Sequence record: OZ035764.1 | Direction: 5' to 3' (one strand) | Length of the DNA stretch: 44,422 nucleotides | Source of the DNA: Kagunavirus 536P11 | In this document: positions 14,683 to 31,617 of the stretch, one piece after another | How positions within the stretch are numbered: position 1 is the first letter of the stretch | How the letters are laid out: the number at the start of each line of letters is the position of its first letter | The notes under the pieces: model-generated | What the model was told of the DNA's origin: nothing | Databases searched by the model: none | The model's input: only the letters and a program-made list of their open reading frames with translations | Position numbers and translations under genes: made by a program

Positions 14683-14789
14683 GTAGTGTGTTAGAATAAT
14701 TTTGCGCCTAGTGTCGCACACGAAAAGCGGGTGGTTCCCGTCTGGCGCATTTCCTTTAACCAGTAACCTCTTAACCAAAGGATTAAAGA

Positions 14790-25250: not shown

Positions 25251-26671
25251 TTCTTACCTCGTCTCTTCATGTAATTAAGCAATTCTTCCTGGACCGATTT
25301 CTTCTCGTCAGTACGCGCGGCAACAACCTCGTCCAGCGTGTCTTTAGCAACGATGTGGTAAAGGAATACCGGGCGCTCGTGTCCCGCCTGTTTCTGGCGT
25401 ACCGGGCCTATACGCTCAACGACCTGCAAATAGTGCTCAAGGTTCCAGCCTTGTGAAATAAACGCCAGATGATGCCCACCGTCCTGTAAATTGAGGCCGT
25501 GGCCCGCTGACGCCGGATGTACGCATAAGATTTCGATTTCACCGCGGTTCCACGCTTCCATCTGCTTATTGCCCTTAGCACCTTTTGCAAACGCCTGGGC
25601 TTGAGGGAATCGCTTAAGGATACGTTCCAGTTCGTGCTTGAACTGATAGGCGACCAGTAGCGGTGCGCCCTGTAACTCCTCGACAATGGACTCAAGCGCA
25701 TCCAGTTTCGTATCGTGCACTTTCTCCCAGTCTTTGGTTGCTTCTCCGTCCGGCCCCGACACATACACGGCACCAGATGCAATCTGCAAACACTTCGACG
25801 TCTTCGCCGCTGCGTTAGCTGCTTCAACTTCTCCGCTCTCCAGTTCTGCAAATAGCTTCTCCTCCATATCTATGTACGCCTGACGCGCTTTCTTCGGCAG
25901 GTCGATTTCAACCGGTACGATAATCGGCGCTTCGCAACCGAACCACTCGGCAGCGTCAATCGTGAGACTGATGTCCTTCATCCTCTGATGAATCTCATTA
26001 TCCGCGCCCGGGCGTACCCGATACCTTCGCGCCATAGCCGATTTACCTTCCTGCACCGAGTTAAACCACCGGTCGGTGAACGCAGTGTATGAAGAACCGA
26101 GGCGCTCGCCAGCGTCGATAAACCAGTTCTGCCCCCACAAGTCCTTGAGGCCGTTAGGTGACGGCGTACCGGTCAGGTTGATAAAACGCTTAACCTTACC
26201 GAACGCAACTTTACTTAGCGCCTTTGCTCGCTTGCTTCCACCTGAACGGCTGCGGAATGATTTCAGCTTCGTGCTCTCATCGGCAACGATGACCGTAAAA
26301 GGCCAGTCGTCTTTGCCATAGTAGTCAATCAGCCACTCGATAACTTCGTAGTTGGTGCACACCACGTTAGCGTCCGACTCCAGCGCCGCGATGCGGCGCT
26401 TCTCTGAACCGGTTGCATCTACGACACTCAGGCACGGGAAACCCCACTTAGTTTGTTCTGCGGGCCACGTGCCGGACGCAACACGTAACGGGGCTAGGAT
26501 TAACACGCGGTCCTCTTCTGTAAGTTGCCCATTGCGAAACAGGCGGTTGAGTACCCACATCGTTGCGGAACTTTTGCCCGCACCCATCGAAGCCCAAATA
26601 TTACAGCGAGGGTGTTTCAACATGAACGAAGTCATTAGCTTCTGGTATTCACGCCTTTGAAACTTACTCAT
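25247..26671 (-). CDS. SNF2-family / DExx-box helicase
   Basis: Walker A GAGKSS, DEST box, helicase C-terminal-like region. Confidence 0.65.
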   Translation of the reverse strand: MSKFQRREYQKLMTSFMLKHPRCNIWASMGAGKSSATMWVLNRLFRNGQLTEEDRVLILAPLRVASGTWPAEQTKWGFPCLSVVDATGSEKRRIAALESDANVVCTNYEVIEWLIDYYGKDDWPFTVIVADESTKLKSFRSRSGGSKRAKALSKVAFGKVKRFINLTGTPSPNGLKDLWGQNWFIDAGERLGSSYTAFTDRWFNSVQEGKSAMARRYRVRPGADNEIHQRMKDISLTIDAAEWFGCEAPIIVPVEIDLPKKARQAYIDMEEKLFAELESGEVEAANAAAKTSKCLQIASGAVYVSGPDGEATKDWEKVHDTKLDALESIVEELQGAPLLVAYQFKHELERILKRFPQAQAFAKGAKGNKQMEAWNRGEIEILCVHPASAGHGLNLQDGGHHLAFISQGWNLEHYLQVVERIGPVRQKQAGHERPVFLYHIVAKDTLDEVVAARTDEKKSVQEELLNYMKRRGKK

Positions 26672-27617
26672 TTACCACCCCCATGAATGCCTTTATAAAT
26701 TCAGCGGCTACTTGCGGGATGATGGCATTGCCGTAACCGCGCAATCGTCCCACTCTGGCGGGTATCCCATTAGCCAGCGGGAATGTGCCGGGTTCAACTG
26801 GCCTGAATTTCCCATCCCGGCATCCGAGCCAGTCAGCATCTGACCAGAAGCTGTGGTGCGTATTGGCCGCGATATTTTCAGTCCCTGCTCCGTTGAGTAG
26901 TCCAGCCTGTCGAATGTTCTGTCTTTTCCGTCCTTGCGAATAACTGTCTCTCCGCTCCCTCTGTAATCGTTCGCTGTTGGGGTCGGCCATGCCAAAAGGT
27001 ATTGTGCGTGCGTCGCCAGATTGCAATTCGCATTCGGTCTGTTGAAGCGTTTTTCCGCGTAGGCTTGTGGGTCTTTCGCTCTGCTGTTGTTGTCGTCCGC
27101 AACCGCTGGCGTCGGCCAGGTTGTACGCGCCGAAGAACAGTCTGTCGCGTTTGTGCGGGGCACCGACGCTACAAGCTGGGAGTACGGCAAACCCGACGGA
27201 GTAGTCTTCTCCTTCCAGATGAGTTTGTAAATCGCACATCCACGATTTTGCAATTGCTGGTGCAACCTGTTCCCCAAAGAGGACTGGAGGGCGGCACTCG
27301 CTGATGAGGTCGAGGAAGACTGGCGCGAGGTGTCTCGGGTCAAACTGCCCGAGTTGCTTTCCTGCCGCGCTAAACGGTTGGCAAGGCGGGCTTCCCGTCC
27401 AGCAAGGCGTATCTTCCGAAACTCCCGCAAGTCTGAGCGCGAGAGGCCAGCCGCCGATACCAGCGAAAAAATGACACTGGGTGAACCCGTCAAGGTCTTC
27501 TGGCTTAACTTCGGTAATGCTTCTTTCATCTACAACTCCAAAAGGTATGTGACCCTGCTTTATTAATTCACGCAGCCACGCTGCCGCGCTTTTATCCCAT
27601 TCATTGTAGTAATTCAT
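26664..27617 (-). CDS. DNA (cytosine-5)-methyltransferase
   Basis: motif I FFAGIGG and motif IV GSPPCQPFSAAGK (catalytic PCQ). Confidence 0.8.
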   Translation of the reverse strand: MNYYNEWDKSAAAWLRELIKQGHIPFGVVDERSITEVKPEDLDGFTQCHFFAGIGGWPLALRLAGVSEDTPCWTGSPPCQPFSAAGKQLGQFDPRHLAPVFLDLISECRPPVLFGEQVAPAIAKSWMCDLQTHLEGEDYSVGFAVLPACSVGAPHKRDRLFFGAYNLADASGCGRQQQQSERPTSLRGKTLQQTECELQSGDARTIPFGMADPNSERLQRERRDSYSQGRKRQNIRQAGLLNGAGTENIAANTHHSFWSDADWLGCRDGKFRPVEPGTFPLANGIPARVGRLRGYGNAIIPQVAAEFIKAFMGVVNE

Positions 27618-27835: not shown

Positions 27836-28120
27836 CTAACTATAATAGTTCGCTATTAGGTCGTCAACCTGTTTAAACGAACCAACGACAAAAACATTTG
27901 CACCACGTTTACGCATCCGCTCATGCTCCCGTAACTGGTGCGGGTCAGGCTTCGTGTTCTCGTCTTTCTTCACCTCGACGAACCAGATGACGCCGCCGGG
28001 GAGAATTATCAGCAGGTCAGGAGCGCCCACTCTATTTTCGTACGACAATTTGCGTACAAGGCCCCCCAGGGCCTCGAATCGGTCTTTTGCGTATTTCTGA
28101 ATCTTGCCTTCCGGGGTCAT
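27836..28120 (-). CDS. VRR-NUC domain nuclease
   Basis: PD-(D/E)XK-like GAPDLL...VEVKK signature; ATG at 28120 (M6 of track ORF) overlaps stop of upstream micro-ORF. Confidence 0.6.
   Translation of the reverse strand: MTPEGKIQKYAKDRFEALGGLVRKLSYENRVGAPDLLIILPGGVIWFVEVKKDENTKPDPHQLREHERMRKRGANVFVVGSFKQVDDLIANYYS
27839..27867 (-). promoter_or_regulatory. early promoter with operator (minus strand TTGACG-17-TATAGT, core AATAG-N4-CTATT)
   Basis: plus strand TATAATAGTTCGCTATTAGG at 27841-27860; lies inside the 3' end of the VRR-NUC ORF. Confidence 0.5.
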
Positions 28121-28269
28121 GACCGCAGAACCCAAGTTATAAACGCCCCGCCGAGAACGGCAACGCCAACAAACTTAAAGAACAGGCCATAACAGAACAT
28201 CGCGGCTATCCCCGCACCGAGTAACAGTGCGAGCATGGTTACTATCGTCCAAAATACAAACATTGTCAT
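28117..28269 (-). CDS. small hydrophobic membrane protein (50 aa, not in ORF track)
   Basis: MTMFVFWTIVTMLALLLGAGIAAMFCYGLFFKFVGVAVLGGAFITWVLRS; ATGA overlaps at both ends. Confidence 0.4.
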   Translation of the reverse strand: MTMFVFWTIVTMLALLLGAGIAAMFCYGLFFKFVGVAVLGGAFITWVLRS

Positions 28270-28355
28270 AATACGCACCCCTCCCGTTTTGTATGCTCAA
28301 TGCCACAGCGCGGACAGATTCGGCAGTCTTCTTCGTAGAACCAGTAAATTTTCAT
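28266..28355 (-). CDS. micro-ORF, 29 aa CxxC peptide (not in ORF track)
   Basis: MKIYWFYEEDCRICPRCGIEHTKREGCVL; ATGA coupling to both neighbours. Confidence 0.3.
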   Translation of the reverse strand: MKIYWFYEEDCRICPRCGIEHTKREGCVL

Positions 28356-28504
28356 TCCAGCACCCACAGATAAATTGCGACTAACATACCCAATACGGCG
28401 ACTAACATACCCAATACGGCGACCATCATGCCGTATTGACCCTCGTGGCAGTAGACACCGGCGGTGAATCCCGCCAGTACTGCGATAATCAGTTTACTTA
28501 GCAT
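28352..28504 (-). CDS. small membrane protein with internal tandem repeat (50 aa, not in ORF track)
   Basis: RBS AGGAG 8 nt upstream; MLSKLIIAVLAGFTAGVYCHEGQYGMMVAVLGMLVAVLGMLVAIYLWVLE; overlaps 3' end of DNA polymerase gene. Confidence 0.4.
   Translation of the reverse strand: MLSKLIIAVLAGFTAGVYCHEGQYGMMVAVLGMLVAVLGMLVAIYLWVLE
28382..28423. repeat. perfect 21-bp tandem direct repeat x2 (TAACATACCCAATACGGCGAC)
   Basis: in-frame duplication giving VAVLGML twice in the small membrane ORF. Confidence 0.8.
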
Positions 28505-30695
28505 AGCGTTTTAACTCCTGCCCTTCCGCTACAAGAGGGAACCCCTCGGCCCACTCAGGCAGAGAACACATTAATTTTTCCAGTTCGGCCACCGTGTACT
28601 CAGGGGTATCTGGGGTTTCACATACCAGTTCATCGTGTACCGAAAGCACGATAGGATACCCGCCACGCTCAACGTTAATCATCGCATATGCCAGTAAATC
28701 ACGGCACAGCGCCTGGACAATGTTTTCACATGCTTTACCGCCGTGGGTGTATAGAGTTGTCCATTGGCGGGTTAACTGGTTTTCGCCCTGATACTTGATT
28801 CGGACATTCGTGTTTACCCGTCCATCTTCGTCTGTTTCCTTTGTCACACTAACGCCGATTCCCGGATACGAGAGGATACGGCCTGACGGCAACTCCATAC
28901 ACAACCACCAGCCAGGAACCTTCCTGCCCGACGAATCAAATTCTACGGTACGCCATATGCGGATAGCCCTTTCACCATTCCGGCGCAAGTGTGCCCCGGC
29001 CCAAAATTCACGACCAGGATTACGAACAGCGGCTAAAATTCCGTCTTTAAGGTCGCGCCAGAACGCTACTGTTTCCGGGTGTGACTCGCGCCACATACGC
29101 TTGATTGCATCACATGTGCGCCACACTTTCTTGTCCAGAATATATGATGGTCGGTCATCCTTTTCACCTGGATGCGGTGGTCGCTTGGCTTCCTGAATAC
29201 GCGCCCACTCATACCCACGTGCGGTAGCAGCCCAGATGTGGTCGGGGAAAGTCCCGTCCATTGTTTTTGCCATCTCAATAAGGTCAAGACCTAAGTTTTT
29301 AGCAAACGTAACGAACGCTCCGACGCCGCCCTCGTAGCCGAGACCCAGTTCGCATGCTTTGCCTATCTGTCTGATTTCCTTAAAGTTTTTCTTAATATCG
29401 TCGGGGTCCATGCCAAACATCTTACCTGCGGTTACACAGTAAATATCCAGTCCGGCACGGAACGTATCGAGCGCGGTTTCTTCTCCTGCTAACCACGCTA
29501 ACCCACGACCTTCGACGTTAGAGTAATCAGCTACGACAAACTTGTGCCCGGCTTCCGGTATGATGCAGCTACGGACCGTCGATGCCGTCAGCTTGGCTAC
29601 GTCAAATCGGCGGTGAGCACGACCCTTAAGTAACGCTGAAATGCCTTTATCCAGTTCATCATCGTGATAGTAACCGCGCGCCAGGTTCTGCGGCTGAAAG
29701 CCTTTACCCGCCCATCGCAGAGTGCGTTTTGCCCCGCCGTACTGCAAGCAACCACGACGGCGGTCGTCAGACGAGCGGCCCAACAGAAGCGGGTTATATT
29801 TCGTGGACGCTGTTGACGCGGCACCGAGGCGCATTTCGATAATCGTCCGGGCGTCGTCCGGTAAATCATCATCTGCCAACAGGTCGTTAAGCGTAGACTT
29901 CTGCGCGTTGTGAATACGGTGCGCAGGCGCAAGTTCACGCAGAATCGGCAGAAAGTCCTTACCCGTAAGCGAGCCTCCGTATTTGCGCTGGGCTTCTTCC
30001 TGTAACTGCGCTTTATGTTTCTCTACGGCATCAATAGCGGCTTCCGCCAGTGCGACGTCAACCTTAAACCCGCGGTCATTAATTAACTGGTCCAGTTCCA
30101 GTACGCGGTCCTCGAACTCGGAGTTACCCCAACGCGGCAGCTTATGGAAGACTTCACGCATCGCAGTGATGTCGCTCACGGCGTACTTGATGAACAGCGC
30201 CCACTCATCAGGGTGTGTTTCGGCGGTGTAGCGTCTGATTTTGTAGTTCTTCGGCGTCGGCTTAGAGAAACGCTGAATCAGCGCCTTGCCGCGTTTATCT
30301 TTCGCATTGTCAGCGGACACGCCCAGCACTTCGCACAACGCATCAAGTGACCCCGGCAGCGCGTGACGAAACGCCCAAATCATTGTATCAATGGTGTTGC
30401 TTACCGGAATATCAAAGTCCCAACAGTGCTTCATGATGAGCCTGTCGAACATTGATCCGTTGTGCCATACCATCTTAATGCGACTGTTTGGCTTAACCAG
30501 GCGGCGTAACGCACGATGCAAATCACCCGGCATGTCGCTGCCGTCGGTGCAATCCCACACCCGCACAGGCTCGTCGTCAAAAGCATAGGTACAGATAAGC
30601 ACTTCGGTTGACGGGTGTTCGGCGTAAGCGTAGGAACCGACTTTCTTTAAATCGGCTTCGGAGAATGTTTCAAAGTCCAGGTATAAGTAGCTCAT
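28494..30695 (-). CDS. DNA polymerase I-like (family A) with 3'-5' exonuclease domain
   Basis: exo motif LDFETF; pol motifs DYSNVEGR, RQIGKACELGLGYEGG, VHDELV; start at M19 (ATG 30695, RBS AAGGA) preferred over track start 30749. Confidence 0.8.
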   Translation of the reverse strand: MSYLYLDFETFSEADLKKVGSYAYAEHPSTEVLICTYAFDDEPVRVWDCTDGSDMPGDLHRALRRLVKPNSRIKMVWHNGSMFDRLIMKHCWDFDIPVSNTIDTMIWAFRHALPGSLDALCEVLGVSADNAKDKRGKALIQRFSKPTPKNYKIRRYTAETHPDEWALFIKYAVSDITAMREVFHKLPRWGNSEFEDRVLELDQLINDRGFKVDVALAEAAIDAVEKHKAQLQEEAQRKYGGSLTGKDFLPILRELAPAHRIHNAQKSTLNDLLADDDLPDDARTIIEMRLGAASTASTKYNPLLLGRSSDDRRRGCLQYGGAKRTLRWAGKGFQPQNLARGYYHDDELDKGISALLKGRAHRRFDVAKLTASTVRSCIIPEAGHKFVVADYSNVEGRGLAWLAGEETALDTFRAGLDIYCVTAGKMFGMDPDDIKKNFKEIRQIGKACELGLGYEGGVGAFVTFAKNLGLDLIEMAKTMDGTFPDHIWAATARGYEWARIQEAKRPPHPGEKDDRPSYILDKKVWRTCDAIKRMWRESHPETVAFWRDLKDGILAAVRNPGREFWAGAHLRRNGERAIRIWRTVEFDSSGRKVPGWWLCMELPSGRILSYPGIGVSVTKETDEDGRVNTNVRIKYQGENQLTRQWTTLYTHGGKACENIVQALCRDLLAYAMINVERGGYPIVLSVHDELVCETPDTPEYTVAELEKLMCSLPEWAEGFPLVAEGQELKRYAK

Positions 30696-31588: not shown

Positions 31589-31617
31589 ACTATAATAGCT
31601 AACTATTCAGGTGTCAA
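31589..31617 (-). promoter_or_regulatory. early promoter with operator (minus strand TTGACA-17-TATAGT, core AATAG-N4-CTATT)
   Basis: plus strand TATAATAGCTAACTATTCAG at 31591-31610. Confidence 0.55.

Follow-up and report, generated by a model that had tools for sequence, protein, structure and literature searches.

Small inner-membrane regulators of bacteria, such as AcrZ, MgrB, MgtS and SgrT (≤50 aa), bind a larger membrane protein and act through it. Phages encode superinfection-exclusion proteins of the T4 Imm and HK97 gp15 type, which are small, membrane-embedded and dispensable, and which are expressed before the late genes. We analysed a 44,422-nt stretch of DNA from Kagunavirus 536P11 (OZ035764.1; the window), which in length and gene order corresponds to a complete genome of this genus (subfamily Guernseyvirinae), and in which three very short genes on the minus strand, here called o1, o2 and o3, separate a family A DNA polymerase from a VRR-NUC nuclease. 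The predicted products of o1 and o3 resemble the bacterial regulators in size, in their one or two hydrophobic helices and in having no enzymatic domain. The two groups have no sequence relationship, and the regulators offer an analogy for a possible mechanism and not for membership. With the exclusion proteins, o1 and o3 share small size, predicted membrane embedding, dispensability and a presumed expression ahead of the late genes. No match of o1, o2 or o3 to superinfection immunity or exclusion families was found in Pfam or PHROGs at E ≤1, and the closest relative of the window has a separately annotated 'superinfection immunity protein' elsewhere in its genome, not at this locus.

This closest relative is Escherichia phage vB_EcoM_SHAK7693 (91.6% over 83% of a 24-kb query), and the region as a whole matches 408 phage records, nearly all of them Salmonella and Escherichia Guernseyvirinae (Jerseyvirus, Kagunavirus). 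The taxonomy line of the SHAK7693 record (OR594180.1; L001 and L096 in our set) reads Autographiviridae; Studiervirinae; Kayfunavirus, and its name contains 'EcoM'. Since both its sequence and its gene order are Kagunavirus-like, the GenBank record is probably mislabelled.

The five genes follow one another on the minus strand. The polymerase occupies 28494..30695 (733 aa when counted from the ATG that relatives use; SHAK7693_0046, 2202 nt), and a Logan gene identical to it gives a PF00476 match. The start of o1 overlaps the end of the polymerase gene, whose stop (28494) lies 11 nt downstream of the o1 ATG. o1 encodes a microprotein of 50 aa (28352..28504; ATG 28504, stop 28352) and is preceded at 10 nt by an AGGAG Shine-Dalgarno-like motif (28515..28519) within the polymerase coding sequence, for which relatives have purine-rich equivalents. 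It is followed by o2, which encodes a Cys-rich microprotein of 29 aa, MKIYWFYEEDCRICPRCGIEHTKREGCVL (28266..28355; ATG 28355, stop 28266), and by o3, which encodes a hydrophobic microprotein of 50 aa (28117..28269; ATG 28269, stop 28117). A GGAGG motif (28280..28284) lies within o2, 10 nt upstream of the o3 ATG, and its GAGGGG context is kept in relatives. The chain ends with a VRR-NUC or Holliday-junction-resolvase-like nuclease of 94 aa (27836..28120; phrog_93, phrog_5702). No good Shine-Dalgarno motif was found ahead of the starts of o2 and the VRR-NUC gene. Reading the minus strand from 27900 to 28700 together with the ORF listing places ATGA overlaps at the o1/o2, o2/o3 and o3/VRR-NUC junctions. 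A previous sequence-only reading had proposed this arrangement, and we find its coordinates and lengths for the three ORFs exact to the base; the ATGA-linked chain, with the o3 stop overlapping the VRR-NUC ATG, the AGGAG motif and the CxxC peptide are all present as it described them. The motif lies at 28519-28515, and the cysteines of o2 are arranged as C11-x2-C14-x2-C17...H21...C27.

The same reading called the three ORFs unannotated. That is correct for the ORF track it worked from and wrong elsewhere, as the genes appear among GenBank hypothetical proteins, in PHROGs and in public protein sets. In SHAK7693, fPoEco01, fBC-Eco01 and Salmonella phage S100, ORFs between polymerase and nuclease are annotated as hypothetical proteins. 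SHAK7693_0045, SHAK7693_0044 and SHAK7693_0043 (WVW77724.1, WVW77723.1 and WVW77722.1), as well as PE1_039, PE1_038 and PE1_037 of fPoEco01, have the same position, order and overlaps as o1, o2 and o3. For the products of o2 and o3, deposited proteins with 100% identity exist; that of o1 is the SHAK7693 protein plus an inserted heptad, and an exact look-up showed that o2, o3 and even the 50-aa form of o1 are already in public protein collections. Thus, o1, o2 and o3 are catalogued hypothetical proteins and not new, although the 29-aa o2 is left without annotation in many GenBank records. Among the PHROG families, o3 matches phrog_14925 over positions 1-50 of the 50-position profile (E = 5.3e-34) and is full-length at 50 aa, and o2 matches phrog_38225 (E = 2.5e-22), with C14, C17 and C27 conserved as in the family. 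The match of o1 to phrog_10404 (E = 8.9e-31) is split in two stretches because a heptad is duplicated. Its position after the polymerase with an 11-nt overlap fits that family; its length does not, as the Kagunavirus and Jerseyvirus members have 43 aa whereas o1 of the window has 50 aa. o1 of the window is a length variant of the PHROG 10404 family.

Database searches give no hint of what the three proteins do. A Pfam scan of o1, o2 and o3 returned nothing above noise, and all homologues of o1 and o3 returned by a search of a collection of 5.8 billion proteins are on ~43-kb Salmonella and E. coli phage contigs, none with an informative name. For o2, tblastn against phage genomes gave 444 phage records, all from this phage group. 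Since no homologue occurs outside this phage subfamily, no function can be transferred to o1, o2 or o3. The literature that we found on these genes consists of genome announcements alone, with no transcriptomic, proteomic or genetic data. Database entries DAL23273.1 and DAL23272.1 and the record of phage JSSK01 show that some automatic annotations name o2 '3-hydroxyanthranilate 3,4-dioxygenase' and o3 'intrinsic membrane protein PufX'. Both labels look like spurious transfers: the Pfam PufX hit has E = 0.45, and no support was found for either label.

We next compared the reading frames across relatives. Using the VRR-NUC protein, 79 IMG/VR loci were fetched and the peptides placed in them by tblastn; 54 loci belong to Guernseyvirinae, or 55 with the window. 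Among the 54 relatives, o1 is found in 47 loci and is 43 aa long in all 47, o2 is found in every locus (54 of 54; 29 aa, or variants of 32-36 aa), and o3 is found in 26 and is 50 aa long in each. Start contexts and ATGA junctions are also kept. Nei-Gojobori estimates of pN/pS are 0.24 for o1, 0.12 for o2 and 0.21 for o3 in frame; the two shifted frames give 1.0 and 1.9, 2.3 and 1.4, and 0.8 and 1.5, respectively. From the same loci, the VRR-NUC gene gives 0.17 and the C-terminus of the polymerase 0.13. The antisense frame that shares wobble positions with o1-o3 also has a low pN/pS (0.13-0.31), which is a known artefact of such frames, so that pN/pS alone cannot fix the strand. The strand is instead fixed by the conservation of open frames on the minus strand; in the ORF listing of the window, the wobble-sharing antisense frame contains no ORF of ≥20 aa. 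The sequence-only reading had staked its proposal on conservation of these frames in relatives, and they are open in 47, 54 and 26 loci with pN/pS of 0.12-0.24. From these comparisons we conclude that o1, o2 and o3 are, by all sequence indications, real protein-coding genes under purifying selection.

The polymerase, o1, o2, o3 and VRR-NUC genes would be read as one chain within the replication operon. No convincing terminator was found between polymerase and nuclease; the sole coding-strand site is inside o3 and has a 5-bp stem, and terminator-like sites in the region are fewer than in shuffled sequence. Promoter-like sites on the minus strand lie outside the chain, at 31617 and 27867, and a minimum-score match lies within it (28269-28241). 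Rfam has no match in the o1-o3 region. The sole Rfam match in the window is an int-alpA RNA (RF02996) at 14701-14765 on the plus strand, with 36.6 bits against a gathering score of 35.8. Because the starts overlap the preceding stops, ribosomes that end one gene probably restart on the next. The ATGA junctions are kept across different architectures of the interval, including those with alternative cassettes after o2, and the conserved overlaps point to translational coupling of o1, o2, o3 and VRR-NUC.

o1 contains two apolar runs, at residues 5-19 and 24-49 (24-42 in the 43-aa form), which are separated by a nearly invariant polar loop, Y-C-H-E-G-Q-Y-G. An AlphaFold model built with 69 sequences has helices at 2-17 and 25-49 with moderate confidence (mean pLDDT 72.7), and the duplicated heptad is modelled inside one continuous helix. 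The model suggests a hairpin for o1, its two helices joined by the conserved polar loop. The apolar runs of o3 span residues 1-31 and 33-48, and its model is one helix from 2 to 49 (mean pLDDT 91). As a helix of 48 residues is too long for one membrane span, o3 may span the membrane once or twice. Homologues of o3 form 103 clusters, nearly all of 50 aa. The sequence-only reading took o1 and o3 for membrane proteins, and both their hydrophobicity and their modelled helices fit this; most likely, the two proteins insert in the host inner membrane.

The third protein is of a different kind. o2 is hydrophilic, and its motif I-C-P-R-C-G corresponds to a CPxCG zinc-ribbon knuckle. Columns E8, E9, D10, R12, I13, C14, R16, G18, T22-G26 and C27 are invariant among relatives; C17 is nearly invariant, C11 varies, and H21 ranges from nearly invariant to variable. 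The I/F-C-P-R-C-G sequence is common to o2 and the zinc-ribbon knuckles of ribosomal protein S27ae, RNA polymerase subunit M and Nop10. However, a zinc ribbon has four Cys/His ligands in two knuckles, whereas o2 has one knuckle together with C27 and a variable C11 or H21. Searched against solved structures, the o2 profile aligned over the CPRCG hexapeptide alone (E ≥0.7), with no significant match. A complete four-ligand metal site is plausible from the conserved residues, and o2 is most likely a soluble peptide that binds a metal ion. It is also the sole member of the three that is present in every relative compared.

Between the polymerase stop and the nuclease start, the interval has 17 distinct forms across the 55 loci. 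All three genes are present in 25 of the loci and o1 and o2 in 23; five have o2 alone, and two have o2 and o3. Thus, o1 is absent in 7 of 55 loci and o3 in 28 (present in 27), and both are dispensable cassettes in a mosaic, recombination-prone interval. In the loci without o1 (L015, L034, L038, L044, L047, L050 and L053, at about 1754-2008), the o1 N-terminus is fused in frame to o2 as MLSKLI-IYYFREEDC..., and the start overlapping the polymerase stop is retained. The fusion resembles the product of a microhomology deletion. The cassettes that follow o2 at the same ATGA junction are o3, a soluble protein of 63 aa, single-helix peptides of 23-25 aa, or an HNH homing endonuclease or its remnant. 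HNH genes lie at ORF junctions of the interval in L049 and L051 (1499-2005), L028 (1265-1780) and L013 (941-1648), with a decayed remnant in L052 (1861-1992), and in two loci an HNH gene lies between the polymerase and o1. The peptide in the o3 slot of L011 resembles an internally deleted o3. More distant phages, whose VRR-NUC is 40-53% identical, keep the polymerase followed by VRR-NUC, with unrelated ORFs or none between them.

Within o1, the unit GTCGCCGTATTGGGTATGTTA occurs twice in tandem, at 28382-28402 and 28403-28423, in frame and with zero mismatches, so that V28-L34 is duplicated as V35-L41 (VAVLGML). The perfect 21-bp repeat at 28382-28423 and its doubled heptapeptide had been described from the sequence alone, and we confirm them. 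Tandem Repeats Finder reports a period of 21, 2.2 copies and 100% match, and its score of 94 is the window's top. No further copy of the unit was found in the window even at 3 mismatches, and 100 shuffles gave no match. The 2.2 copies result from a trailing GTCGC (28377-28381), a 5-nt microhomology that bounds the unit. Over 28330-28530 (201 nt), SHAK7693 is identical to the window apart from a 21-nt gap; its single copy reads ATGATG-GTCGC-CGTATTGGGTATGTTA-GTCGC-AATT, with GTCGC direct repeats 21 nt apart. Direct repeats of 5 nt that flank a unit are a classic substrate for slipped mispairing. Slipped mispairing between these two GTCGC microhomologies would have produced the in-frame tandem duplication. 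In helix 2 of o1, the apolar stretch would thereby grow from about 19 residues to about 26, an increase close to two helical turns. The earlier suggestion of recent slippage is therefore supported, both by nearest relatives that are identical bar the 21-nt indel and by the GTCGC repeats in the single-copy allele. The locus does not behave as a contingency (phase-variable) locus: one-copy and two-copy alleles alone were seen, and since the unit is a multiple of three, the reading frame is kept and there is no switching.

Other length changes of o1 were also seen. Contigs L097-L100 (601-741; in L099 631-648) from Salmonella-associated phages carry a perfect 9-nt tandem duplication, two copies of GCGGGATTC, which turns AGF into AGFAGF in helix 1 and yields an o1 of 46 aa; it occurs in at least 4 samples and is independent of the 21-nt event. 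In the database proteins P0061, P0099, P0104, P0037 and P0010, o1 has become joined to o2 by a frameshift (72-73 aa) or lacks its stop (73 and 109 aa), and the 109-aa stop-loss variant sits on the duplicated allele. These frameshift and stop-loss proteins may be real variants or sequencing errors.

The comparison of repeat copy number among related phages, proposed in the sequence-only reading, gave one copy in 47 of 47 related loci and in each of the 60 best of 446 matching GenBank records, which span 179-181 nt of the 201-nt query. Among 73 clusters of o1 homologues, 66 have a 43-aa representative and none a 50-aa one, and the duplication junction, searched for as an exact match, is absent from IMG/VR, from JGI metagenomes and from GTDB genomes. 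At least 7 contigs encode the exact 50-aa o1; they come from 5 runs (ERR12949609, SRR22877823, SRR22877990, SRR12978842 and SRR12978828). The ERR12949609 contig shares 100% identity with the window over 4 kb and probably represents the same phage. When the window and two duplicated contigs are compared with three single-copy contigs, about 915 nt around o1 contain 0 substitutions, and the near-identical block around o1 extends over roughly 3 kb with very few substitutions before mosaic divergence sets in. As duplicated and single-copy genomes differ by no substitutions nearby, the duplication is recent when measured against point substitutions. A second duplicated haplotype has 19-20 substitutions, mostly in VRR-NUC, and an HNH gene downstream where the window has a methylase. 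Thus, the two-copy allele is not private to one genome; it is rare and circulates in natural Kagunavirus populations, having either been spread by recombination or arisen more than once at the same microhomology.

The methylase of the window is a 317-aa ORF at 26664-27617 on the minus strand with a C-5 cytosine DNA methylase match (PF00145, E = 1.5e-16). A 273-aa ORF on the same strand (26708-27529) overlaps it almost fully in a different frame and has no Pfam match; this 273-aa frame is an automatic gene call on the related Logan contigs L084 and L089.

Taken together, we consider it likely that o1, o2 and o3 are three genuine genes of the Kagunavirus replication operon, arranged in a coupled chain, with accessory o1 and o3 and with a slippage-made 21-nt allele that segregates in o1. 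The part of this reading that leaves most room for another account is the duplication, which might be a neutral or mildly harmful loss-of-function allele, the seven added helix-2 residues disabling a protein that is itself dispensable. Such an allele would fit the natural absence of o1 in 7 of 55 loci, the rarity of the two-copy form (not seen in the 47 loci, the 60 best of 446 GenBank matches or the three collections) and the frameshifted and stop-loss variants that are also in databases. Nevertheless, we think it unlikely. The inserted residues are in frame and all apolar, and the model places them in one continuous helix; as seven residues are close to two helical turns, the helix faces are nearly preserved; and two haplotypes, sampled in 5 runs, carry the allele. 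The independent 9-nt in-frame duplication in helix 1 likewise persists in Salmonella phages. At the other extreme, the membrane-helix length of o1 could be under diversifying selection, with the 21-nt and 9-nt duplications as adaptive retunings to a host membrane target, a proposal that we regard as highly doubtful. If true, the two events would represent, for example, escape from a host defence or a match to a different host, and not neutral slippage scars. That the repeat instead acts as a DNA or RNA element, such as paired protein-binding sites or a structured RNA, or that it is an assembly artefact, is extremely improbable: although two turns of B-DNA correspond to the 21-nt period, a single copy is present in the 47 loci and in the 60 best of 446 GenBank matches, GTCGCCGTATTGGGTATGTTA occurs nowhere else in the genome, Rfam has no match in the region, and independent assemblies of 5 runs, which belong to three accession series, contain the same junction.

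The remaining alternatives concern the proteins themselves. The ORFs might be mere translational relays from the polymerase to VRR-NUC, with inert peptides, since overlaps of 4 to 14 nt chain the ORFs together in all architectures of the interval, irrespective of which ORFs are present, and since in phages without o1 the o1 start fused to o2 keeps the overlap with the polymerase stop. However, inert relays are very unlikely: o1-o3 have fixed lengths and experience purifying selection as strong as that on the flanking enzymes, hardly any variation is seen in the o1 polar loop or at the Cys and charged positions of o2, and the shortest natural architecture requires o2 alone. Given their small size, their hydrophobicity and their one or two predicted membrane helices, either or both of o1 and o3 could also be taken for holins, antiholins, pinholin-like proteins or membrane-depolarising toxins. 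We find this still harder to accept: the lysis cassette of SHAK7693 (two holins, endolysin and spanin) is elsewhere, at 41.9-43.0 kb and 5.5 kb, and o1 and o3 belong to the replication operon, are both dispensable in natural relatives and have no charged hydrophilic C-terminal tail as holins do, ending in ...YLWVLE and ...TWVLRS, respectively.

We therefore return to the reading of three genuine operon genes. Since o1 and o3 are optional and lie in a mosaic interval, an accessory role is most likely for them, and our best inference is that o1-o3 encode accessory membrane and metal-binding microproteins. By analogy with the bacterial regulators and the exclusion proteins, o1 and o3 may modulate a host envelope protein or the susceptibility of the host to other phages.

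The finding is one of ordinary phage biology, in which the duplication is a minor polymorphism, and its value lies mainly in annotation hygiene. For experiments on microproteins, o1 offers a handy start, as alleles of 43, 46 and 50 aa and deletions occur naturally in near-isogenic genomes. For the phage group, which is in wide use and includes therapeutic candidates, ORFs of 29-50 aa that length-thresholded ORF tracks miss are real conserved genes, and the junction between polymerase and VRR-NUC is a hot spot of cassette exchange.
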